Notes: a model not told the origin generated them from the letters alone. A stretch of 64,000 bases of DNA from Guillardia theta CCMP2712 (GCF_000315625.1 NW_005434661.1:72956-136955); one strand, 5' to 3'. Shown: positions 12,341-64,000, numbered from the stretch's first letter. Numbers and translations are program-made.

Positions 12341-12638
12341 GAACTTGGCAAGGCTTCCGTTACCCTTTGGGTCGATGATCGGTTACGCCTAAAGGTCTGC
12401 ATTCCCCTCGGCATCCCTGGATGGGCGGCCAATGGGAGGTGGTGGAAACGGAGGAGGTGGTGAGCAGCTGAGGACTCGCCTCTGACCACGTAAATGGCTG
12501 CCCTCAAGTCTGATTGATACCCTCGATATCGTCTCTTCTCAGCTTCTTTCCTATCCATCTGCACTCCAAGGGCACTAGCTGACCTTGGTTTCCTCCGATT
12601 TGATCGAGCTTTGACCCGAGGAAGCAAGGGTACACATC

Positions 12639-13676
12639 ATGGATGAGGTAGCATCGAGAGATATCTCCTGGGATGAGATCGACAAGTTCAAGTACTACTT
12701 CTATGGTCCATCGCTATCCCTTCTCGTGCGGTTCTGCCTGTATCCTTTGTCTGTCGTGAAAACAAGGTTGCAAATGCAGAAGGATCCTTACTCGATAGCA
12801 GCAAGTGCACCCTCAGTGAACCACTATAGTGGGACTCTGGACGCATTCCACAAGATCATCCGGCACGAAGGGGTACGTGGATTGTTCAAAGGCTTTGGAG
12901 TCAGTACTGTCGGAATCGTGTCGGGGCAGCTGTACATCACGACTTACGAATATGTGCGCCATCATCTGATGCACATGAACGAGAGGAACAGGTTCATCTC
13001 TCCGAAGAGGATGAACGTGGTGAGGAACGCAGTGGCCGGGGGATGCGCATCGCTGGTCTCGCAGACCATCGTGGTCCCGATCGACATCGTCTCGCAGAAG
13101 CAGATGATGAACTTTGGCACCGGTGACTCCAACGGCTCTCTGGTCCACGTCAGCAAAGAGATCCTACGGCAAGATGGGGTGAAAGGATTTTACAAAGGGT
13201 TCGGAGCTTCTTTGTGCGTCTATGCCCCATCTTCAGCGATATGGTGGGGTAGCTACGGGTACCTGAGGGAAAGGCTGCAGAGCCACTTTATGCCTACGTC
13301 GCATGCCTCCAAGCGGTTGACGGAGGCATCAGCTGGAGCATCAGCTGGATTGGTTGCAGCCGTAGCCACGAACCCGATAGACGTGGCAAGGACGCGGCTT
13401 CAGGTGCGGGATCGATTGATACTCTCAGCTCTCTGATTTACCCAGTCCTGACAAACTGTCGACCAGGTGGAGGGGCATCCGCGAGATGGCAGTAACCTGC
13501 GGACTACTCTCCGGCATCTCTGGTGTCAAGAGGGGCCAAAAAGTTTGTTGAAGGGAGTCCAAGCACGCATCATGGCATCTGTACCATCTTCAATCATGAT
13601 CGTCACAGTTTACGAGCTTGTGAAGAGGCTCAGCAAGAGGACAGACAAGCACTACCCGCATCGAACGAGCTTGTAG
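12639..13676 (+). CDS. SLC25A44: Mitochondrial carrier family protein, SLC25A44-like (one intron at about 13404-13466)
   Basis: Three carrier signatures (YPLSVVKTRLQ, VPIDIVSQKQM, NPIDVARTRLQ). The ISWDEIDKFKYY N-terminus and YAPSSAIWWGSY are typical of SLC25A44. Confidence 0.85.
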
Positions 13677-33255: not shown

Positions 33256-33355
33256 NNNNNNNNNNNNNNNNNNNNNNNNNNNNNNNNNNNNNNNNNNNNN
33301 NNNNNNNNNNNNNNNNNNNNNNNNNNNNNNNNNNNNNNNNNNNNNNNNNNNNNNN
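33256..33355. other. Assembly gap (100 N)
   Basis: Run of N. Confidence 0.99.
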
Positions 33356-33479: not shown

Positions 33480-35520
33480 GGTTCTGCGGGATGGAACGGA
33501 CCGCCGGCTACGACTTCTGCGGTGTGCACATAGGAGAGGTCGAGATGATGGGAGGGGTAGCTCCCAAACCTCCCCAGCTGGGAGAAGGTGCTTGTTCTCA
33601 GCTCTGGCTGGAGGATGACGAGCTGTGGTGCAGGGGTGAGGGGGAAGGGCCACGGGGCCATGGCCTCCAAATGCTTCACGACATCAGCCACAGCGTTCGC
33701 CGACGTCGAGAGCAGGAGCAAGGAGGCTGAGGAGACGGCTAGAGCTGAGGAGGAGGTGGGCAAGAAGAGGAAGACCTCCACATGGAAGGACAAGGGAAAG
33801 AGGATTCCTTGCCCGCACGACCCCAGTCACACCATCTACGAGAAGTCGCTGGGCAAGCACGTGCAGCACTGCCCCAAGTACAAGGAGAAGCAGGAGCAGC
33901 GCTCGCTTCCCTTCTACTCGGAGAACATCAATATGAACCAGGACGCTGCTGCGAGCTCGCAGCTCCTGCGAGAGGAGGAGGAGGATCTCAACGACATGGA
34001 CGAGAGCGAGATGAGGTCCAGGAACAATTGTCAGGCATGTCAATCAATACGTCTCTCCCTACCCTCGTTCGCACCCCCTTCCTTCCCATTCTGCTCTGTT
34101 GTGCTCTGCTCTGCTCTGTTGTGCTCTGCTCTGCTCTGCTCTGCTCTGCTCTGCTCTGCTCTGCTCTTCCCTTCTGTTGTCTTGTCTTGTCTTGTCTTGT
34201 CTTGTCTTGTCTTGTCTTGTCTTGTCTTGTCTTGTCTTGTCTTGTCTTGTCTTGTCTTGTCTGATATCTCAACTTCTTCCTCATGGCACCGCTCCTCCTA
34301 CCCCTATTATCCTGGGCTGACTGTTCTGTCTACTCCTTCAGGCTTCTCTCAACCTCGAGATCCTCAAGCTCTCCAACTTCGAGCTCTTCCTCCAATGTAT
34401 CGAGCGAGTCTATCACCGTCTGGTCGGCAACATCCCCTCCCAGGTCCTCTCCTCCGCCTCCTGTCACGCCCTCCTCACCGGAGACAGCCCGGCATCAGGG
34501 CGAGGTCAGAGTCACAAGGGGCAGAAGGCAGGGAGCAGCGTGCAGCGGCACATCCAGCAGCAGGCCTCCATCGTCGGTCACCTCGAGGAGCTGAAGCTAG
34601 TCGGGGACCAGTTCACCTACGTCGAGATGGGAGCAGGACGCGGGATGCTCTCCATAGCCGTGCGGGAGGCGGCGCCGAGGAGCTCGGTGCTGCTGGTGGA
34701 GAGAGGAGCATGCAGAAACAAGGCGGACAGGCTGCTGTCCTGCAACAAGGAGGCGTTCTTCCAGCGGATTAGGATGGACATCGCGCACCTGGAGCTGAGA
34801 AAAGTCCCAGTCATGCATGACGCAGCTGTTGTCGTGCTGGGGAAGCATCTCTGTGGAGGAGCGACGGACCTAGCGGCTCGATGTGCTGTGAACACGCTGA
34901 AGGATGCAGAGAGCGATGAGGGAGGAGGAGGAGGAGGAGGAGGAGGAGGAGGAGGAGATCTTCGAGGAATAGCAATTGCGACATGCTGCCATCATCGCTG
35001 TGATCCCTCGAGCTATGTGCTCCCTGGATGGGTCGAGGAGGTAAAGAACCTGTTGGAGTACCGCGAGCTGACGGGCATGGCAGCGGCTGTGCGAGGAAGG
35101 AGTGCCTGCGCAAGAGGTTTCCTTCGACCTGGTGCTCATCTGTGCTCCCAAACTTCCTCCGCTTCCTCACCCTCTTCGCAGATCCGCCTGATGACGTCAT
35201 GGGCGTGCTGCGGATGGAGGGAGGAGGCAGGCGAGCGGATGGAGGGAGGAGGAGGAGGAGGAGAGGAGGGAGGAGGAGGAGAGGAGGGAGGAACAGCGAA
35301 TCCAGGCGCTTCAGCTCCCTCCTCTTCAATCGACAGCCACCCAGCGTCCTTCCTGCCCCGCACTCGCAAGCAAGAGCTGGGGAGGATGTGCAAGCGGATT
35401 CTCGATATGGGGAGGGTCGAGTGGCTGAGGAGGAAGGGGCTCAAGGCCAAGCTCGTGCACTACTGCGACGCCAGCTCCGTGTCACCTGAGAACTGCCTAC
35501 TGCTGGCACGGAAGGAATGA
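33480..35520 (+). CDS. TRMT13: tRNA:m(4)X 2'-O-methyltransferase Trm13 (first exon unresolved, near the gap)
   Basis: FCGMERTAGYDFCGVH (CCCH finger), RIPCPHDPSHTIYEKSLGKHVQHCP (CHHC finger), RHIQQQASIVGHL, YVEMGAGRGMLS, GKHLCGGATDLA, IATCCHHRC, CKRILDMGR, VSPENCLL. Confidence 0.93.
34101..34261 (+). repeat. Intronic pentanucleotide arrays (CTCTG)n + (CTTGT)n
   Basis: Perfect and near-perfect pentamer runs in a TRMT13 intron. Confidence 0.95.
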
Positions 35521-35635: not shown

Positions 35636-38302
35636 TCATTGAACCTTCAGCACCCGCACCCGCCCGAAGCGCCTGGTGTCTCTTTTGGCCCGCAGGTTCC
35701 TTTCCACGTAGTTGCACAGTGCGATGTCACCAAGAACCTCCTCGTCAAAGAGAGCGTGAGGGCCCGACGCGCCTGTCAACACACCTGTCAAGAGCAGGCC
35801 TCCTGCTGGGCACTCTCCTCACCTGCTCCAGCATCCGCTCCCTCCCTCTGCACGCACGACTCCCACACGTCACACCCCAGCTGTACTCCCTTACACCCTC
35901 TATCTCCGCCTTCCCAATCCAGCTTCCTGCACTTGAGATCAGCTTAAGATGCTCTCTCAGCAAGAGAAATGTAAGTACGCTGAAGGAGGAGGGGGAGGAG
36001 GGGGCGATGAGACAGATGGAGTAATGGGAGGAGGACGGGGAGGGGAAGGGGGAGGGAGAAGGTGGAGTTTGTGGTTGTAGTGGAGGAGAAGGAGGAGGAG
36101 AATCTGGAAGAGAAGAAATCTCACCCTCGTCGGAATGACCTTCCACTGATTCGATCGCATCGCTGAAGGAGCCTCCGGGACCGGGACACGGGCTGCTGCT
36201 GGCCTCTGAGGTGGGTCCACTCGTCGACGCTGAGATGGTCTACCGGGACGAACATCTCCTTAGCCAGCAAGTCGCTCATGGTGCCTGAAGGGATCGAACT
36301 GCCGTAGAACATGTCCTGTGAGATTTTTGTCTCCTCCACCTTTTGCTGTCATCACGTCAGAGAAGGCAAGACGAGCACAAGGCAAGGAGGAGAAGGGGCA
36401 AGGGGCGGAGAAAGAGGAGAGGGAGTGAAGGGGAGGTGGTATGAGGAGGAGAAGGAGTGTTTCATGGATGGAAGTATAAAGAGGAGGAGCTGCAGCAGCA
36501 GCTTAGGATACCTTGGGCCACACACAGAACCCGCTGGTGAACAGATAATCACTCTCCGTCGCTTGCCCTGGAACAGAATCAAAACCAAGGGGAACGCGCA
36601 TGTTGCCTCTACCCGAAGACACGGACTTTGACACGTCTGCCATGGAGCAAATGTAGAATTGAGAGTCCTCAGACACTCTCATGCCGATCTTCTGTCTCGC
36701 CAGATGTTCCGACGTGTGGATCGCTATGAGGGAAAGGTTTCCTGCCGAATATTCTCCGCCAAAACTCAGCCAGCGCCCCCCGAAGAGATCAGGAGAGAAC
36801 TTGGAGAGTTTCACAGCCTAAGGTCATGAGTCAACCTGGTGTACTGGGAGAGGAGGGAAACTCACTGAGGTTCGCATCGGTCTGTTGAGAACAACTCCAA
36901 CCGTCTGTTCTCGGTTGTCTTCAAGAATCAGCACAACCGACTTGTGCAGATACTGTCCGATACGCATCATGTCAGCACGTAAGCTGCTTCCACGACCTCA
37001 GACAAACCTCTCGAGCGAAGATGAAAGGTGCAGGGCCGTTGGCCCGGAGGAGCAAGCCAGCCTTGAGGCTCGGGAGGGTATGCTGTGGAATTCGGATCTC
37101 CTGTCACTCCCTTGTCAGCTGAAGGGTCCAGAAGAGACCTAGTACCTCGGGCCTGTCAATCAGCAGCCTCCTCGCCCACTCCTTCATCATCGCGTCCTCC
37201 AACTCTGACTGAGATTTCGCCGAGAAACTCCCAAGCCCAACAGCAGACATCCAAGTATCCCATATGTCGATCCCCGCCTCCTCCTCTGTAGAGCTGAAAC
37301 CTTTCAAATCGTCGAGTATGCGGGCCAGCAGAACGTCCGACGAGACCGTCGACTTCCTCACGCAGTTGTTGCATCTCTTGGAGTATTCCTTGCAGACTTG
37401 TTGGCAGGCCTGACAGACCTGCGACTTGGTTGACTTGCCCGCGGATGCTATGAACCAGTTCCTGTTGAGTCCGGAATCAACCTGAGCTTCAAGATCCCCA
37501 GATGCCCACCCAACATATCCCAAGAAGACGACAAAGTCTTCTTTTCTCGCATGCCCAGCTTGCACAAGGGACTCAGCTGAGTTGAGGGAGGTGAAGTAGA
37601 CGCCGTCTACTATCTTAGCTGATACTCTTTGTGCTACCTATCAACACATCATGTCACAACACAACACAACACAACAGATCTACCGTTCACCTCTCCATCT
37701 AACTTGTGCAAGCAAAGATAGTGCTTCAAGTCCCGTGGAGCAGAGAACCCTTGGATGTTGCCTCCATGCCACAGCCTCCATCCATTCTCCGTCGAGAATT
37801 GAGATGGCCTGTTGAGAATGATCCCCTGTGTGTAACGCGGGGTGTGGGACAGGACGAGCACTAAACTTTTGTGAAACTGTTGGTCGACATGTGGGCTGTG
37901 CGTGTTGATCGAAAACAGCAAGGTCCCGGCTTGCACTAATTCGCCTACATCGTACTTCCAAACATTCGACGTTGTCTGTGCTTTATCGGCCGCGTTGTTC
38001 AGCCTCTTTACTCCAGCCTTGCCTTCTTTGCCAGTGGTCAGATACTGTTCTTCCAGCTTCTCCCTGAACGTCAGCCAGTCACTGCGATCACTTCCCAAGT
38101 CGCTCTGCTGCATTCTTGGGATTCGAAGATGCTTCAGGGAGCGAGATTGCCTGACACAAATATGGTCTTGCTGTCTTGAGCCGACTGATGCATAGCGGAG
38201 CAGACCATGCTGTGTGGAGATGAAGGAGTTGCTTCCTTGAAGAGAAATGAGCAGCACAAAAAGGAGGATGTGAAGATATCCATGGCAGGGGCTCGAACCC
38301 AT
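35636..38302 (-). CDS. Plastid-targeted protein with two tandem DUF179/AlgH (YqgE) domains, multi-exon
   Basis: Signal peptide ending LQGSNS|F. Domain 1: QQFHKSLVLVLSH..YTQGIILNRP..LWHGG..FVVFLGYVGWASGDLEAQV..NWF. Domain 2: YLHKSVVLILED..TVGVVLNRP..LSFGGEY..YLFTSGFCVWPK. Confidence 0.8.
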
Positions 38303-38953
38303 TCTGACTCAAAGAAATACCAAAGGTCGTCCGATGCGCAAGGCTTCAGACAAGTCTTTTCCTGGAGGGTCGAGCGTTCGATATCGTTCTAGCCTATCTC
38401 TTATTTCAAACTCCAGGCTCCTGAAAACCATGTCACGGTCGTCACATCCTAACTACGATTTCGTCGAATGTTTGCGAAGCAAATGGTTCAGCCCGCCTCC
38501 CCTTCGTCCTCTCTATCCTGTCCTTACTGCTGCCCCACTTTCTCTCTCTCCCCCCCCTCCCCTGCATCCCTTCGCTGCATCCCTTCGCTGCATCCCTTCC
38601 ATGGGTCTCTCCCTCTCCCCCTCCTGGCTCTCCTCCCCTACCGTCCTCTTGCCATGGCTCAAAACTTCCCTGTAGGATGACTCAGATTATTGGGGCGCAT
38701 TTTAAGAAAAACCTGCAGGGGTTTACATTTGCAGAAGTTGTACTTGGCAAATTGATTCAATTCAATAAACTGAAAATAGCTGATAAAATTTGAGATTTGT
38801 TTTCGAAATATTTCATTTAGTCGAAATTTGAAGTTTTTGTGGAAATCCTGAAATCATTAGTCGCAACTCGGTTGTTGCAGTCCTCCCACCGGGGCCCGGG
38901 CCCGGCCCGGTACCCGCCAAGTTACTGAATCCGGTTCAGCACGTGAAGGCGCA

Positions 38954-41963
<3,010 letters not shown>

Positions 41964-42172
41964 CTACTCCGCCAACCACTCCCGCCGTCAACTTCCAACC
42001 ATAGCCAGACTGTTTTTGAGTAAAGAAGCCCGGGCCCGGCGACGACTCACTGGCAGCGGTGACCGGGCCTCCGGGCCGGCGGCGCGCGGGCGTCCCGGAG
42101 TGATCGGACGGTACTCACGCGGGGGACTTGTCCTGCGCGCAGTTAAGTGAAGGTATCAGTTAAGTTTGGGGG

Positions 42173-42260
42173 ACTGATTTTTAATTTCACTTTGAGTAAA
42201 GGCACGACGGTAGTTGACGGTCCTCGTACTGATTTTTAAGTTAACTTTGAGTCAGTAAAG
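42173..42260 (+). repeat. Two copies of a dispersed 29-bp element, consensus ACTGATTTTTAACTTAACTTTGAGTAAAG
   Basis: Copies at 42173 and 42228. Others at 58350, about 58378, 62896 (reverse), 63419 and, degenerate, 12104 (reverse). Confidence 0.75.
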
Positions 42261-47026: not shown

Positions 47027-47559
47027 ATGGCAAACCAGTCAGCAAAGAAGGCGGATCAGAGGACAAAGGACTTCAGGTGTGTACACTCACAAAGATGCTG
47101 CTAGTGGATCCCAAATAAGAAGCTGATTGCAGGCAATACCATGGGTTAGCTATTGTGGGACTAGCAGTGCTCTATGCTCTTATCAAGTTCCTCATCTTCA
47201 GTGCAACATGGCAGAGGATGCACACCGTCCTGTTCGCCGTCTCCGTCGTCATGCAGTATGCATGCTACAGCTGGATCTTCAGCCACCTGGAGTCGGGTGG
47301 ACGGCTGGATGACAAGGGAGGGATCGTCGAGAAGTGCAGGGACGTACTGTACCTCTCCATGATCGCCATGACACTCTCGCTCGTCTCCGACTATGCCTGG
47401 CTCTTGTACTCTATCTTTCCTCTCTATCTGGTCTGGAAGGTGCTGACGTGGATTGGATCGTCCGTGTTCGGGTCCAAGGAGGAGGAGCCGGTGGAGTACC
47501 AGCTCTCCAAGACCCAGCAGAAGAAAATGAAGAGGGCGGAGAAATTCGGAAGGGGCTAG
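47027..47559 (+). CDS. TMEM208: SRP-independent targeting protein SND2/TMEM208 (DUF788); one intron at about 47077-47133
   Basis: MANQSAKKA..., membrane helices, GGIVEKCRDVLYL...SDYAWLLYSIFPLYLVWK, and a basic tail SKTQQKKMKR. Confidence 0.88.
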
Positions 47560-55900: not shown

Positions 55901-57920
55901 TCCTCCTCTTCCTCCTCCTCCTACTTTCTCCAAACTTCCCAGCTTCTGATTTCCTCTTATCCATCCGGCCTCGACTGCTTCTCCTCTCTTCCTCCTCCTT
56001 GGCCTCTCCACTTCTGTTTCCTCCAATCCTCCATCGATATGATCCTCTCACACCCCACGCTCCTCTCCTCCGGCACCGTAGTTCCGTTGCCCGCGCAAGA
56101 GTCTGCAAGCGTCATCCAGGTGCGGTAAATCTCACTCTCCATCTTGTCGATCTCAGACCAGGCGTCCTGCAGGCAAGGATCATTCAGACAAGCAAACTTC
56201 AACCTCCATTCCCTGTCTCTCAGTATCCTTCACTGCTTCTGCAGAACAGCTTGCACATGTTTCTCCAACACAAATACATCTTGTTTCCCATCTCTTCCCT
56301 ACTTCCCAATTTTCCTCCTCAACAAACCAGCCACCAGAAACAAGAATTCGATACTTTTACCTCCAGGTGGGGAAAGTCCTTGATCTCGTCGAGGAAATTT
56401 TTGAGGTCAAGATACTCTGCGAAGATATCAGCACAACTCAGCGTCATATCTCCAATGTGTCGCACTCTCTTCTCCATTGACTTCAAACCTGCCAGGTCTG
56501 CTCTTGTCCAACCACTGCATATCTGATCAGCACTGGCAAACTACTCCCTCCCTCCCTCCATATGTCCCTCCCCTCCCCTCCCCTCCCCTCCCCTCCTCAA
56601 CTCTCCCTCTTCCTACCAATGTCCCATCGTATGAAATGTTAGAAGCTATGAAGTGAGACTCTTGCGCCATGGCTTCATGACCTCAGTCAGCAACGAGCAG
56701 GCAGGGCTTGCAATTCGTTACCAGACGCAAACACTGCTGGGTTTCTTAGCAGAGCGCTGTCCTTCACCGTCAGCGTACATGCATCATGCATGCAGACTGC
56801 GACGAATTCGTTCTAGCACGACCCTGAGCACGGAAAAGGAGCCATGGCAGTCGTACCTCGAAGAGGAAGCAGTTGCTCACGTATGCCTTAGCCCGTCCAC
56901 CGATCCTCAGCCCTGCCGAAGAGAACAGCCCGCAGTCCTGTGCACGTCTGAGCGAGCAGCTCGTAGCACACGCCATGCTCACTTGGATGGTGCAGTCTTT
57001 CAAGGTAACGTCGGAGGAGCCCATGGCAACGACTCCATCCGTTGCCATGTCTGGCAGGAAACAACCATCTCAGTTCATCCAGAAGTCAGGACTCATCATG
57101 GTTGACCTATTCTCAAGTTGGAATCATCGCACTGCTTTCCAAAGCCCCCGATCAAACTAAATTGCAACATCACTCTCAATAAAAGACGATGGAACGCAAA
57201 CCAGTTCGAGATCTCAACCAACGAACTCTCATCGCATCTGGAAACTTCTCAAAACAGAAATCCAGGCTCACATACAAACGACAACCTGAGCACAACAAAC
57301 TCATTGCTATGCAGGATACAATTGCTCAACTTCCAGGGTCCCCCAAGAATCTTGACTCCTGCTCGTTGTCATTCACCACATTGAGGTCAGGGCCGGCCCC
57401 TCCTTGCCTGCTTCTTGACAGATGAAGGTGCTGATAACAGTCTTCCATTGAAGAGCGTGCCTGAGCAGCATGTAAACATCAGGCATGGTGCTGATAGTGG
57501 TACCAGGATCCTCTACTTCCTTCCTCGAGGCAGAGAGGTCCTGAGAGGGGGCACTCCTCTGCTCCGATAATCTTGAACTGTGCTTTCAGCGACACAACCT
57601 GATCTGCCGACCTGCATGAATGTCAAGCATGACAACAAGAGGAGAGGACGAAAGGGATTGCTCTACCACATCAGGTTCTCCTCCACCGCGTCCGGAGCTA
57701 TCCGAATCACCTGCTCCTCATCCCCCGCAGCATTCCCTGAGCGTTGGTTGGCGTATCGAACTGCTGATGCAAAGTGCTGCTCGTCAGAGGAGATGGTGAA
57801 TTCATGGTGTCCTCCTCCTCTGAGCCTCAGCCTTGCTGGGACACTGAGCGATGACATAGGAGCATGCTTCTCAGTCGTAAGGCAGCAAAGGAGGAGGATG
57901 AAGAGTCCGATCGCCTTCAT
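52939..57920 (-). CDS. Signal peptide + LRLRGG + right-handed beta-helix (pectin-lyase-like) region + degenerate M20 (CNDP2/Dug1-type) peptidase domain, multi-exon
   Basis: N-terminus MKAIGLFILLLCCL...ARLRLRGGG. Beta-helix rungs: GVKILGGPWKLSNCIL, GVVAMGSSDVTLKDCTIQDCG, GLRIGGRAKAYVSNCFL. M20 blocks: LPFKVEIIIDCLEE, ADLHSGYFGGVLMEPLAAL, MLARAWFQPSLSFHSI...RTVIPSKPLARLSVR, AYRKEPQVIYEG, YLQYGTKAAVAFL. Confidence 0.65.
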
Positions 57921-58838
57921 TGTCTGGGTACAGCCTTGCTCATGGAGGTCCGACCGAGAGAGAGATCGAGCATAGACAAGCAGCAGTCCAACATGTCAGG
58001 GTCCAGAGGAGAAGGGGAGCGGGAGCTACAAGGATGCATGTCGGGTCCTGGCCCCATCGGAACTTGCGCAGGACATGACCGGACCGGGACACCCGGCCCG
58101 GCCGGGGCCCGGGCCGTAGTCACCAGCTTCCTTTACTCCGAGTCCTCGCAGTGACCGTACTGGGGAATGGAGTCCTGCGCGCTGTTAAGTGAAGGTATCA
58201 GTTAAGTTTGGGGGACAGCAGTTGGCAGGATTAGGTTTGGTTCTCGCTGTCTTTTCTCTTCTCGCCGTTTGGCCCGGCAGTGCGATCGGACAGTGTCAGG
58301 GTTACTGAAGCCTCCTCGACTGAGAGTCTCCTACTGAAGTTGTCCTCGTACTGATCTTTAACTTAACTTTGAGTAAAGATTTTTAACCGTCTAACTTTGA
58401 GTAAAGAAGTCACACTGTAGTAAAATCATCGTAAACTTCCGTGACTCTCACAGGCTGCGCTGGTCACTGTCACCGCTTGGGGGGACTCGAACAACGGACG
58501 GGGGCTTGTCACGGACTCTGACTCACAACTTAAAAGCACACACCGCGCTCGCCACTGATGAGCCTCCGACACATTAAAAAGAAACAATTATTACCCAGAA
58601 CTTCTCACCGACTGCAAGAACTTATCCGGGTTCTTACAGGGGAGCAGCCACGATAGTACCTTCTTGGCTCACCCACCCCGAAGAGTAGGGTTCTTACACC
58701 AGCGTAATTATTAGAACTTAGAACTTATCCGGGCGTAATTATTAGTCATCATGTGCCTCCGAAACTATTCGGGGAGCAGCCACGATCAATCTCCTTGGCT
58801 GACCCATCCCGAAGAGTATCATGTTCAGATCTTGAGGG

Positions 58839-58846
58839 TATAAAAA
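58839..58846 (+). promoter_or_regulatory. TATA box of the RelA/SpoT-like gene
   Basis: GGGTATAAAAAGGGG about 60 nt upstream of the ATG, conserved in the duplicate (GGTATAAAAGGG at about 63554). Confidence 0.6.
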
Positions 58847-58900: not shown

Positions 58901-60639
58901 ATGAGCCGCGCGATGGCGTGCGAGGGCGAGGAAGCCATGGAGCTGACGTGCGTCAGCGAGTCAAGTGAGCGAGAATCTGAAGCCCGAGGGACTCACAACA
59001 AACCTCTGGAGTTCTGCTACTTCTACACGCACTCGAAGGGCGACTTCCTCCAAAGCTGCATCCGGGAGAGGATAGTCTACAAGTACAAGCCCAGCGCCAT
59101 CTTCTTCTCGCCTGAGCCTCTGTCTGCCGTGCTGGCCTGGCCTCGAGCACAGTTAGCCCTGGCGCTGTTGAGTGCAACATGGTTGGTCTTCATCACACTG
59201 AAGCTGCAGTCAATCCAATCTGCAGGGTATTTCTCGCTGGTGAACGAGGAAGCGAGGGTGCGAGAGTTCTCGACGGCAGCTTTTGGACGGGACCGAGAGC
59301 TTGCCTGCTCGTGGGAGCTTGTCCTCGAAATGTTCATATCCTTCCTCCTGGGTGTCTCCGGGCTTCTGATCAGCATCCTTGCGCATACGAGTCGCATCGA
59401 GTTAGCTAAGCTGGTAAGTACATGGGTTAATTGACAGTCACCAAGAGACTGAGAGGATCGCAGTTGATGCTCGTCACCGGCTTTGTCGGCATCACGACCA
59501 ATTTCATCATCTTCGTCAAGCTGACGTTACAAGGCTCTGCCAGGAGTGGGCTGAGGACGCCGAGCTGGTTCTTTTTAGTGAACGTGATGACGGTAAGTTG
59601 TGTGCGAGTGCTGGGAGCGACGCTGAGGTCACCCTGCAGGACGTGCTTTTGTTTCCTATGCCGCTGGCAGTGAACGAGAGCTGGGTGGTGGAGCTAGTGC
59701 TGCTGGACAGCATAGTCCACCTGAGTGTGGAGTTTGCGGACGGACAGCTGCCATACTTGTACATGCTGATGGCAACCGTTGCCCTCAGCTTTCTGCTGGC
59801 GCGCGAGCGTATGAGATGGCGAGTGCTGCGGGAGATGCGTCAGGAACAAGAAGGAGCGTGGGAGGAAGAATGGATGAAGATGCGAGGCAGCTGGGCTCTC
59901 CGGTCTCTGACGAAGGCTCTTCGAGTTGGGCCCGACTATCGGTCGTTTGCGTTCGGGTCTTTTGGTCCGATCGTCATAGTGAGCTCAGAACGTCGTCAGG
60001 ATGAGGAGGCAGAGCTGGATTACATCCCGGCTTGCAACCCCAAGACCAACACGAAGGTGCAGACGTCACCTGACAGCCTCGACCAGCTCTACGCTCAGGC
60101 GATCCTCATCGAGCCTGTCTTCCTCCTCAAGGTCCAGGCCCTCGCCTTCGCGTCCGACGGCTACTTCCCTCTTGACAGCTGCCAGGACAGCTCCCCCGAG
60201 TACGTGCGATGGCGAGACGCGGTGAGGGACGACACGCTAGCAGACAGGGTGAGGTGGGCAGCCATCAAGAGCGCCTCTAGAGCCATCGAGAAGCTTGTGC
60301 GCGCATACAACTTTGTCAGAGCTCACGGATGTGGTGCGGCAGACGATTGTGTTTGCGGGGCTGGAGGAGCTGCTGCTGGGGGTGAAGGCGGTGCTGGACG
60401 ACCCGGAGCTGGAGGTGGTGAGGATCAAGAACAGGCTCGATCCAGGCTTCGACTCGACGCTGTCGGGGGGGTACCGGGACGTGGCGATCAACGTACGAGT
60501 AGTGAGTGACGAGACGAGGAGGAGAGGGGTAGAGGGACACGTGTGCGAGCTTCAGCTGATCCTCCAAGACTTCCATGCCCTCAAGTCCATGGACGGACAC
60601 AAGAGGTACGTGCAGTTCCGCAACATCCGGTGTGAGTGA
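58901..60639 (+). pseudogene. Multi-pass membrane protein with a C-terminal RelA/SpoT-like synthetase (Pol-beta NTase) domain; frameshift at about 60315
   Basis: Introns at 59414-59463 and 59593-59639; about 5-6 hydrophobic helices. Motifs: IKSASRAIEKLVRAY / LTDVVRQTIVF, VVRIKNRL, GGYRDVAINV, HVCELQL, GHKRYVQFR. The frame changes at TTT-G-TCA with no room for an intron. Confidence 0.75.
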
Positions 60640-60802: not shown

Positions 60803-60965
60803 ACCGCGTCCGGAGCTATCCGAATCACCTGCGCCTCATCCCCCGCAGCATTCCCTGAGCGTTGGTTGGCGTATCGAACTGCTGATGCAAAGTGCTGCTC
60901 GTCAGAGGAGATGGTGAATTCATGGTGTCCTCCTCCTCTGAGCCTCAGCCTTGCTGGGACACTGA
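60803..60965 (-). pseudogene. Duplicated fragment of exon 1 of the beta-helix/M20 gene (no ATG or signal peptide)
   Basis: 163-bp near-identical copy of 57685-57847. Confidence 0.85.
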
Positions 60966-60985
60966 CCCGCATGATATACGAGCAT

Positions 60986-62612
60986 TGTTGTATCGATGAG
61001 GATCCGGAACCACGGATACTCGTCGGATATTTCCCACCATCGCCACCATCGCCACGGCGGCTATCTCAGATCGCCGATCCCTTGTGCGTGAAGTAGTTTA
61101 CCTCCTGGCAGTAAACTTAGAGACTTCTATCTTCTGCTTCTCTATCTTCTTCATCCTTTCTTTACTCGTGTCGTTAACAATCTCTGTGTTGTGTATGCAA
61201 CATTCTGGAAGCGAAGTGGTTGATTCATGACCTCGAAACAAGGCACTCAGCCTCGATCTAAGCAATCAGGAGCATTTCAAACTGAAATTGCTGAAGAGAG
61301 TTCTGAGGAAGACTCTGAGTCGAATGGAGCGAGCGGCAGCAGCAGCAGCAGCTTTCTCCGAGTCAGACTAGTGGATCTTTGACTCAAACTTATAGAGATG
61401 GAGATGTCCCCTGCGAAGTATTCTGCGATCAGAGGAGGCAACTCAGAGAGCAACCGCCTCCCCTGCAACATCGGTACGTCTGCCAAGCTCGGAAAAGTTT
61501 TCATCCGACCTCGTCATGTCACTCGCCAGTGGCGCAGGACCGAGCTCTTCTCCTTCTTCGTCGAATGTATGCCCTCCTGGCTGACACCACGCAGGACGAG
61601 CATTTCCACATCAGTGCTCGACGAGTTTGAGACAGCAGATGCTGCTGCAACACCGGAGCTCCCGCCTCTCGCACGGAAAGTCACCCTGCTAGATGCGAAT
61701 GCTGATATCTATTCAGCTGAGGAATCAGCTAGCGCTGAATCCTCTGATCAGGAACCAGTCCTCTCCAATCGGACTCTCGTGAATTTGCTGACGAACGGGG
61801 AGTCCAAGAGTTTCAATTCCAGTCGCATTCCGCTCTGTTGAAGAAGTGTTGAACCGCGAATTGATCGCTGATGGCAAGCGATTGCAACTCGCAAATGGGT
61901 CAAAAGCATCACGCCGCTGTTCACCAACGAAGTAATGGTGGTGGTAGAACGCAAGTACGGCAAGAGCCTCGAAGCAATCAACAGGCTCAAACGGGATGAA
62001 TTTTCAACTTATCTTAGTTCATGTCTAGCCTCGATGCGGAAAGCCAAAAAATATCCGAGACTCAGCTTGATCAGCTCAAGCAGCAGCCCAACGAATCCGC
62101 CTGGGCGTACTTGACTCGCGCCACAACGCTCTTCGCTACCGTGCGGCTCGAGTCGCAACTTGAAGTCGGGTCAGCTATCTTGTATTTCAATGATCAGCCA
62201 CTCCGGAAATTCATCAAAGGAGCCCTCTCCGAGCAAGGACTTCAGCCTCGACCGTCCCAAGTCAGCTCAAGCCGCATCCCCCTTCATCTTGAAGGAGAAC
62301 TCCAGGCTACCATCGCGTACATGCTCGATACTGCTGCGACCTTCGCCGCTTGAACCAAGCCGTTTTGAATCAGCAGACCGCCGCAACTCCTACCGTCGAT
62401 GAGATGTTGGAAAATCGGATTGCAGCGCGTTCCAGAATCTGGACGAAAAGATGGCAGCGTTGTCGCTGATAAGGACTTGAGGAAGGCTTTGGGATCGAAG
62501 CACGGTTTCGGATGAATTTTTGAGCAGCTTGTTCAGAGTGAGCCTGAGAAGTAAACTACCGGCGTACGCACAACCACCACATACTTGTCTATCTTCTTCA
62601 TCCTTACTTTAC
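60986..62612 (+). mobile_element. Degenerate LTR-retrotransposon remnant (gag-like) inside duplication unit 2
   Basis: Absent from unit 1. Broken ORFs include QLDQLKQQPNESAWAYLTR (gag Q-x3-E-S-x3-Y-x2-R motif). 60986-61179 is bounded TGTT...AACA. TCTATCTTCTTCATCCTT(T/A)CTTTAC is repeated at about 61141 and 62588. Confidence 0.6.
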
Positions 62613-63620
62613 GAGAGAGATCGAGCACAGATACTTCTTTACTAGTAAGCAGCACGCGGCAGTCCAAGATGTCAGGGTCTAGAGGAGCCTGAAGGCCCGG
62701 AGAGCTACACTGAGGATGCATGTCGTGTCTGGGCCCCATCGGAACGGGGGCCGTTGTGACTGCGGTGCAGGACATGACCGGACACAGTGCCTCAGTGGCC
62801 GCCCGGGCCGGGCCGGGCCGCCGGCGGGCTGCAGGCCGAGCTTCCTGATAGTACTCGGCATCTTTCAGTGACTCAAAGTTAAAAGGAGGACAATCCTTTA
62901 CTCAAAGTTAAGTTAAAAATCAGTTTACTGTGGCACTGGCCAAACCTTTTTTACCGTGGCTCGGACTCAGTAGTGAGATTGAGTAAAGAAGTTAAAAAGA
63001 AAGTAATAAACGTGGCCACTGTAGTAAAATCCGATGATCATCGTAAACTTCCGTGACAGGCTGCGCCATAACAACGGACGGGGGCTTGGAATTTTACTAA
63101 CTTATGAACTGCGATGCCTGAATCGCAGACAGCCGGGCCGTGCCATTAGCCGGTTCCCCAAAGCCCCCCAGGCTTCGGGGGCCCTGGCTCCGACCTCCAG
63201 GCTCGCCGATTTCCTAAGTCTCAACATAATCAATTCTATCATGCTCGCGGCAGTGAGCTTCAGCTTCGGCGTCCACTGAAGAGCCTCCCGAGTCCGACAC
63301 ATTAAAAAGAAACAATTAACCAGAACTTCTCACCGACTGCAAGAACTTATCCGGGTTCTTACCACGGCACGATATCTTGGCTCACCCATTGCCCCGTAGA
63401 GTAGGGGCTTTTATAGTTACTGATTTTTAACTCAACTTTGAGTAAAAGGTTCAACGGCTCATACACCAGCGTAATTATTATTAGAACTTGCCGGGCGTAA
63501 TTGGTCATCGGTGCCTCCGAAACCATTCGCAGGGGGAGCGGCCACGATCAATCGGTATAAAAGGGATTATATGAAGTTGACAGTAGCAGAGTATTGAAGT
63601 AAACATTCGTCGTAAAGCGG

Positions 63621-64000
63621 ATGAGCCGCGCGATGGCGTGCGAGGGCGAGGAAGCCATGGAGCTGACGTGCGTCAGCGTGGCAAGTGAGCGAGAGGCTGA
63701 AGCCCGAGGGAGTCACAACAAACCTCTGGAGTTCTGCTACTTCTACACGCACTCGAAGGGCGACTTCCTCCAAAGCTGCATCCGGGAGAGGATAGTCTAC
63801 AAGTACAAGCCCAGCGCCATCTTCTTCTCGCCTGAGCCTCTGTCTGCCGTGCTGGCCTGGCCTCGAGCACAGTTAGCCCTGGCGCTGTTGAGTGCAACAT
63901 GGTTGGTCTTCATCACTCTGAAGCTGCAGTCAATCCAATCTGCAGGGTATTTCTCGCTGGTGAACGAGGAAGCGAGGGTGCGAGAGTTCTCGACGGCAGC
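63621..64000 (+). CDS. Second copy of the membrane RelA/SpoT-like gene (truncated by window end)
   Basis: MSRAMACEGEEAMELTCVSVASEREAEARGSHNKPLEFCYFY... is in frame and about 98% identical to 58901-59280. Confidence 0.8.
   Translation, partial: MSRAMACEGEEAMELTCVSVASEREAEARGSHNKPLEFCYFYTHSKGDFLQSCIRERIVYKYKPSAIFFSPEPLSAVLAWPRAQLALALLSATWLVFITLKLQSIQSAGYFSLVNEEARVREFSTA

Follow-up and report, generated by a model that had tools for sequence, protein, structure and literature searches.

The gene at 58901-60639 of the window (by which we mean the whole 64,000-nucleotide stretch of Guillardia theta CCMP2712 DNA analysed here) is a broken or mis-assembled half copy, a signpost to a protein family that is the main interest of this work. 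We lean towards seeing the locus as a broken member of a family expanded in cryptophytes, whose intact members would be proteins of 12 membrane helices bearing two RelA/SpoT-type domains, D1 and D2, both likely cytosolic, with D2 transferring pyrophosphate. This family is real and large, made, judging from predicted structures, of membrane-anchored enzymes of the RSH type that combine an intact with a degenerate domain, and it was absent from the literature searched: no title or abstract was found that describes it, and supplementary tables of RSH surveys may list its proteins. An earlier note on this DNA had suggested a possible sensor at the locus itself; as assembled, the copy is frameshifted and of half length, and does not support that view.

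The features of the locus are collected in Table 1. Both GT-AG introns previously recognized are seen, and the same pair stands in a database gene model. Where five to six hydrophobic helices followed by a charged one had been announced, six membrane helices and the charged helix are present. Mapped from a paralogue model, they lie at about residues 81-100, 140-160, 169-191, 205-225, 228-247 and 255-271; in the window protein alone four pass a hydropathy of 1.6 and two reach 1.5. The first outer loop is about 38 residues long and the large ectodomain of the family is absent from this copy, so that the term 'receptor-like' suits the family more than the locus. The synthetase motifs K-x3-R-x2-EK, D-x2-R, GYR, E-x-Q and H-x2-Y are all present and in the expected order, and a read-through joining both frames has 12 of 12 synthetase motif residues, but they are split over two frames by a frameshift at about 60314, 3' of the first motif and 5' of the second. 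Starting from the ATG at 58901, the spliced frame is off-frame past this point and meets a stop after 503 residues, while tblastn over the gene changes from frame 3 to frame 1. As a result, the gene as assembled cannot make the enzyme. The title and reasoning of the earlier note were silent on the frameshift, although the test that it proposed did speak of a 'repaired' domain. A third intron, in the same gene model P0002, was considered as a functional rescue and rejected: it skips the frameshift but deletes the D-x2-R motif. The TATA box ascribed to the gene is in place and stands also ahead of the second copy (TATAAAA occurs four times in the window, for 0.93 expected). The tandem duplication is equally apparent, copy 2 starting 4720 nt downstream of the window gene, with 6 differences in 378 nt before the end of the window cuts it.

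Table 1. Features of the synthetase-like locus and of its surroundings in the window
Feature	Position	Strand	Remarks
TATAAAA box	58839..58845	+	56 nt 5' of ATG 58901; recurs before copy 2
Exon 1	58901..59413	+	171 codons; N-terminus hydrophilic, no signal peptide; TM1 and TM2 (with a short outer loop between them) and start of TM3
Intron 1	59414..59463	+	GT-AG, 50 nt, phase 0; identical in gene model P0002
Exon 2	59464..59592	+	43 codons; TM3 and start of TM4
Intron 2	59593..59639	+	GT-AG, 47 nt, phase 0; identical in gene model P0002
Exon 3	59640..60639	+	1000 nt, indivisible by three; encodes TM4-TM6, charged helix, linker and synthetase domain; ends in TGA, stop codon of the intact frame
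Six-helix membrane bundle, module-1 type	59141..59810	+	41% identity with first module of GUITHDRAFT_111103
Basic-then-acidic helix prolonging TM6	59802..59873	+	forms a single long helix with TM6 in paralogue model
RelA/SpoT-type synthetase domain, mostly D2 type	60075..60636	+	from motifs, profile and fold of relatives
K-x3-R-x2-EK motif	60267-60293	+	window gene
Frameshift	60310..60321	+	coincides with change from D2-like to D1-like residues
D-x2-R motif	60328-60339	+	window gene
GYRD motif	60469-60480	+	window gene
E-x-Q motif	60547-60555	+	window gene
H-x2-Y motif	60598-60609	+	window gene
Tandem copy 2	63556..64000	+	TATA box 63556-63562, ATG 63621, open up to window end; 98% identical
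Mitochondrial carrier	12615-13433		Pfam
TRM13 methyltransferase	33561-35517		Pfam
AlgH-like DUF179	37107-38308		Pfam
Ribose-5-phosphate isomerase A	39262-40053		Pfam
JmjC	40741-41676		Pfam
TMEM208/SND2	47119-47556		Pfam

The make-up of the window domain bears on the origin of the broken copy. Its identity to GUITHDRAFT_111103 is 71% with D2 and 63% with D1 of that protein, and its diagnostic residues resemble D2 as far as the frameshift, D1 just past it and D2 again at the C-terminus; GUITHDRAFT_105588 is a similar half-length D1/D2 mosaic, unbroken. Recombination within a two-module gene, between its near-identical D1 and D2, is the probable origin of the window copy and would have removed the second membrane module. 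The frameshift at the D2/D1 switch reflects either a true exchange out of register or a mixing of both repeats during assembly. A real pseudogene is probable, and somewhat likelier than an artefact of assembly, in which a two-module gene with near-identical D1 and D2 would have been collapsed or mixed, a possible but rather doubtful explanation that concerns the locus only and fits either function of the family discussed below. The position of the break, at the very switch from D2 to D1, would suit such an artefact. So would the DNA runs X1 and X2, which retain the introns: in their sole contig across 60217-60370 the frame is restored by five additional bases at 60314-60321, and depth in X1 climbs from 4.9 at the promoter to 10.7 over the membrane module and 23 over the domain, a rise from which it follows that further copies exist. 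However, the frame-restoring contig also bears a 3-base insertion at 60178 and is thus probably another copy. Minority bubbles, moreover, are lost in contigs; coverage of the junctions between the stop codon and the downstream repeat reveals no differences, and an unbroken half-length paralogue of comparable mosaic structure (P0003) is annotated elsewhere. Other X1 and X2 contigs, in records separate from those in frame at 60314-60321, are short of one base in the G run at 60465, which argues against an intact close copy of the window gene, homopolymer error being possible. As for transcription, 764 million letters of the RNA run X5 (about 6% of the run, uncontrolled by a positive) returned 8 reads, all of them 90-95% alike to the window copy and none at least 95% alike, and the contigs of X6, again with no positive control, leave the coding region of the window gene uncovered.

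The surrounding DNA shows several traits of its own. A 163-nt direct repeat (57685-57847 and 60803-60965, 99% identical) flanks the gene unit, and a contig of X6, an RNA run by guess, covers the start of this repeat at a depth of 277, with the gene itself uncovered. Between both copies, some 1.6 kb (60966-62610) hold broken open reading frames at 61383-61841, 61872-62114 and 62018-62353, for which Pfam gave nothing at E<=0.001; our impression is that they are presumably a decayed retroelement gag. An AT-rich motif of 30-50 nt, found in both orientations (58349-58402, 62871-62924, 63418-63451 and 42130-42252), sits near both promoters and 16 kb upstream, possibly marking the ends of a small non-autonomous element. 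Farther away, neighbours across 12615-47556 are ordinary genes by Pfam, and no hydrolase partner was seen with it among the 117 open reading frames of the window. Two assembly gaps (N runs) lie at 2013-2155 and 33256-33355.

Assignment of the C-terminal domain to the RSH synthetase fold, made on models of relatives, is firm. The model of the intact paralogue P0004 (pLDDT 85.5) gives 34 matches in the PDB at E<=0.001; those listed to that cut-off are all RSH-family synthetases, including RelP (1.1e-5), RelQ (1.5e-5), SaEAS (8.7e-5), CapRel (1.3e-4) and Tas1 (2.0e-4, rank 22), the top ones being ppGpp synthetases. The fold that had been proposed from motifs is thereby upheld by structure. Comparison with Pfam RelA_SpoT (PF04607, curated cut-off 27 bits), suggested in the same breath, did not match any of five pieces of the window gene at E<=10, and among relatives it gave weak, sub-threshold scores in 2 of 25 and 2 of 27 (best 18.7 and 25.5 bits). 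Neither an HD, TGS or ACT domain, whose absence had been claimed, nor a PAAR or MuF delivery domain has a Pfam match in the pieces of the window gene, and the latter two have none in 52 relatives either. At the level of sequence, Tas1 ranks first when PDB sequences are searched with the family profile (E=0.0012; with 30 sequences E=1.4e-4, followed by YwaC at 0.011), in an alignment that covers the K-x3-R-x3-K..Y..D-x2-R stretch. Among viral models, the best matches of P0004 are RelA/SpoT domains in long phage proteins (E=5e-7; 164 columns at an rmsd of 2.5), a class described in the available part of PMC5512222. Viral contigs yielded, for one of nine pattern matches, a phage-type ORF of the same domain, aligned over 166 columns with a probability of 98.5 and displaying GYRD-x3-N, E-x-Q and GH-x2-Y. 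This ORF (L001:4452-6068, on a 363-kb viral contig) codes for a 538-residue protein among repeated motif-sharing ORFs, and adjoins ClpX-like and RNase HII-like ORFs, named by reading their sequences. By name the family is missing from NCBIfam (30 members, nothing below E=0.009) and from PHROGs (1 of 30 members, at E=0.0087); tblastn of P0004 against annotated phages and plasmids found no match at E<=0.01, and a scan of prokaryote genomes with it confirmed 0 of 149 pattern matches. Unnamed eukaryotic clusters rank first in the ESM Atlas, where one set with PF04607 in 34% of its members (score 0.90) is a lead only. UniRef labels three paralogues 'RelA/SpoT domain-containing', so that the domain call is already on record as automatic annotation.

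Turning to the family, a full scan counted 691, 2965 and 6684 clusters at E<=1e-30, 1e-10 and 1e-3, respectively, the best 150 of the 6684 being listed, and word-seeded searches retained 37 of 5048, 31 of 7995 and 16 of 7991 candidates. Close matches with a named organism are cryptophytes: 15 proteins of G. theta, together with Hanusia, Rhodomonas, Chroomonas, Proteomonas and Hemiselmis (of 29 proteins traced through their clusters many are nameless, and four transcript-derived matches carry no organism). Relatives in the last three genera come from transcript sets, which is what we take MMETSP and TRINITY names to denote. The window itself is most likely cryptophyte nuclear DNA. Two adjacent pairs of locus numbers occur among the 15 named G. 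theta paralogues, and 12 of the 15 have two modules, the first with six membrane helices, a helix and D1, the second with six membrane helices and an ectodomain, a helix and D2; the proteins fetched include 42 with two domains, these 12 among them. More generally, in proteins with at least 300 residues ahead of the last domain, a hydrophobic segment precedes that domain in 105 of 112, and at least three segments do so in 78. The full-length model of P0093 (1195 residues, 35 sequences, pLDDT 79.3, pTM 0.72) shows, in module 1, six long helices of which the sixth runs on as a helix before D1 and, in module 2, a first helix followed by a beta-rich domain (residues 643-772, about 130 in all) and, beyond it, five more helices, then again a run-on helix before D2. 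This is consistent with 6+6 membrane spans, the beta-rich domain forming the first loop of module 2. Module 1 is homologous to module 2 (309 aligned columns, some of them in a brief common stretch where the domain begins, probability 98.5). Because membrane bundle and ectodomain have no PDB fold match at E<=0.001 in this full-length model, no ligand can be named. A separate subfamily (P0253, P0255, P0256, P0257 and P0034, from unnamed transcript sets) has a single module and a shorter insert in its domain, and reads GYRNL where GYRD would stand. Among distant relatives (P0117, P0259, P0260), which look eukaryotic, the domain is joined to sensor-like parts of unrelated kinds, as in a membrane protein of Aureococcus, or with ankyrin repeats, or with a Cys-rich ectodomain of ephrin-receptor type and membrane helices.

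The two domains of a protein are unequal. They were compared in a set of 40 D1, 40 D2 and 148 single domains, cluster duplicates (P0040, P0042-P0087), P0002, P0119 and domains of fewer than 120 profile positions being left out. All 12 motif residues, counted only in domains without a gap at any of the 12 positions, are kept in 33 of 35 D2 and 115 of 139 single domains, and in 1 of 39 D1. D1 (of 40) retains D97 (40), R100 (39), E170 (39), K75 (38) and K83 (40), and poorly keeps R86 (9), Y88 (24), Q172 (20) and G186 (9 of 39), whereas the metal/ATP-binding residues K75, R79, D97 and R100 are found in 187 of 187 D2 and single-domain forms. As a D2-type profile supplied the 12 residues, D1 may be specialized rather than weakened or dead. 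In seven G. theta genes, picked for their high internal identity, the core of D1 and that of D2 in the same gene agree at 531 of 539 positions, where different genes agree at 65%; in these seven genes the agreement falls to 14 of 77 positions in the R-x-Y loop and to 36 of 159 in the part that starts with E-x-Q. Such homogenization is absent from most of the 38 two-domain proteins that were compared. We infer gene conversion in the seven, under a selection that preserves the differences of D1 at the active-site motifs, and a pair homogenized everywhere except there points to the residues that matter. Prediction of a complex between D1 (243-530) and D2 (908-1195) of P0093, run twice without alignments, scored 0.00 and decided neither way.

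As to the compartment, the earlier note saw no plastid presequence and tentatively placed the enzyme domain in the host cytosol. The first point is borne out by the lack of a hydrophobic signal in the first 35 residues of the window protein (best 11-residue mean 0.37) and in all 15 N-termini checked in the family. With no signal and six spans, the domain would lie on the same side of the membrane as the N-terminus. Glycosylation sequons are unevenly spread in the same 14 proteins, with 36 in 2348 residues of the module-2 loop versus 11 in 5227 residues of the enzyme domains, which suggests, as far as sequence can tell, that the loop is luminal or outside and the enzyme domain cytosolic. An even number of helices, an absent signal peptide and sequons on the opposite face thus agree with a probably cytosolic domain. 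The positive-inside rule was tried as an arbiter and set aside, as it ends in a tie for the window protein (5 vs 5) and is mixed across module 1; the flank after the last helix of the window protein is strongly basic.

Several known systems invite comparison. Membrane adenylyl cyclases of class III (AC1-9) are built as six membrane helices, a helix and a domain, twice over, with an unequal C1/C2 pair. The family has the same layout, two modules of six membrane helices, helix and enzyme domain with unequal domains, and the analogy drawn earlier is on that account stronger than could be seen from the window, whose half-length copy does not share it. The enzyme fold is however that of an RSH pyrophosphokinase, not of a class III cyclase. 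Homology of the membrane part to adenylyl cyclases was rejected, none of them appearing among the matches listed in the fold search with the full-length model, and the likeness is therefore one of layout only, an analogy rather than membership. RelP and RelQ, SaEAS and the toxSAS CapRel and FaRel2 resemble the family in fold and in being synthetase-only, but RelP and RelQ are soluble makers of (p)ppGpp with SxH, and GYRSLH of YwaC aligns against GYRD of the family. We know of no small alarmone synthetase or toxSAS with a six-helix membrane module or a degenerate twin domain. Tas1/Apk1 and the MuF-fused Apk2 share the fold and, like the family, have no SxH, and Tas1 is the best PDB sequence match; these are exported toxins of bacteria and phages, with immunity proteins, whereas the family is eukaryotic, intron-bearing and membrane-anchored, and Apk2 has GxN at Syn3 where the family has GYRD. 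The phage polyvalent or virion RelA/SpoT domains, the best viral fold matches, with motifs shared by the ORF of the viral contig, belong to soluble multidomain proteins devoid of a membrane bundle. Nuclear-encoded algal synthetase domains are found in plastid RSH1-4 and CRSH and in scattered eukaryotic divRel proteins (PMC6881373, PMC3153485, as far as their available text goes); the word 'transmembrane' is absent from the main text of both papers. An HD domain and a presequence characterize the RSHs of plastids, and the family, for which no HD match and, in the 15 N-termini checked, no presequence emerged, was not retained as one of them. Finally, some fungal NLRs are non-plastid eukaryotic receptors with RelA_SpoT as an output domain, but, in the available part of PMC4986451, they are soluble NACHT-repeat proteins with this domain at the N-terminus and no membrane bundle.

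By analogy, the family most likely works like a pyrophosphokinase of the Tas1 or phage type set in a frame resembling that of adenylyl cyclases, while being a member of neither group. D2 would be the catalytic domain and would take pyrophosphate from ATP and place it on the 3'-hydroxyl of an acceptor, which is most likely an adenosine nucleotide. D1 would be its partner, having retained the D-x2-R and E residues but not the rest. TM6 and TM12 are predicted to run on as long helices toward D1 and D2. The membrane part would likely control D2. The weakest step is that a (p)ppApp-like product would be made on cue, at the ectodomain or in the membrane. More tentatively, synthetases of phage or toxin type may have become, in protists, membrane receptors producing a 3'-pyrophosphorylated adenosine compound as cytosolic messenger, in convergence with the 6TM-C1-6TM-C2 plan of one active and one regulatory domain.

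A different function, which we regard as unlikely though worth weighing, is that of a membrane-tethered immune or suicide effector. Infection or membrane damage would unleash D2, which would drain ATP as (p)ppApp or pyrophosphorylate tRNA and so block translation, with D1 as an intramolecular inhibitor or decoy and no messenger receptor at all. Nearest relatives by sequence and by viral fold are indeed conflict enzymes (Tas1 and the long phage proteins, after the available part of PMC5512222), and RelA_SpoT is an effector domain of fungal NLRs (PMC4986451, in part). Rapid expansion to 15 named paralogues, tandem arrays, partial and broken copies, and the ankyrin repeats or ephrin-receptor-like ectodomain of distant eukaryotic relatives point the same way. 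Yet the two-module layout and the linker motifs are kept across distant cryptophyte proteins, which looks more like a regulated enzyme than a toxin of fast turnover.

The nature of the product separates the proposed pyrophosphokinase receptor from an ordinary alarmone synthetase. SxH is the guanosine-recognizing signature of Syn3 and GxN that of Apk (available text of PMC12226406). SxH occurs in none of 227 domains of the family, 189 of which have Asp at the position of Ser, so that the product is probably not canonical ppGpp. GxN is likewise found in 0 of 227, a sequence trait that speaks against classing the family as Apk. The product cannot be read from motifs, since swapped Syn motifs gave no switch of specificity in Apk2, according to the same portion of PMC12226406. 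An adenosine product, (p)ppApp-like, is conceivable from the affinity to Tas1 and phage domains, and we would put it a little short of probable. That the family would consist of membrane-bound small alarmone synthetases making ordinary (p)ppGpp outside the plastid, in the cytosol or in the periplastid space of the complex plastid, seems improbable: RelP and RelQ are at the top of the PDB fold matches, weak PF04607 scores exist in a few relatives, and some exported synthetases accept both purines (available part of PMC12691689), but the missing SxH, with Asp in the place of Ser, and the lack of a presequence in the 15 N-termini go against it. Two-fold 6+6 topologies are common in transporters and D1 is degenerate, but domains acting as mere nucleotide sensors that gate a 12-helix transporter or channel are very improbable, given the metal/ATP-binding residues kept by D2 and single domains, the occurrence of the same domain with unrelated N-termini and the lack of a transporter fold match at E<=0.001.

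If the receptor reading of the pyrophosphokinase is true, it implies a eukaryotic signalling nucleotide not yet reported in algae, present in cryptophytes and, with other ectodomains, in other protists. To our knowledge, the eukaryotic RSH synthetases so far characterized work in plastids. According to a 2022 review (PMC10107265), plants and algae have yielded no report of either pGpp or (p)ppApp. A dozen two-module membrane synthetases in one genome, and hundreds of clusters elsewhere, would give eukaryotes a source of alarmones outside the plastid, and the soluble D2 of the family, of 190 residues, makes the idea directly testable.
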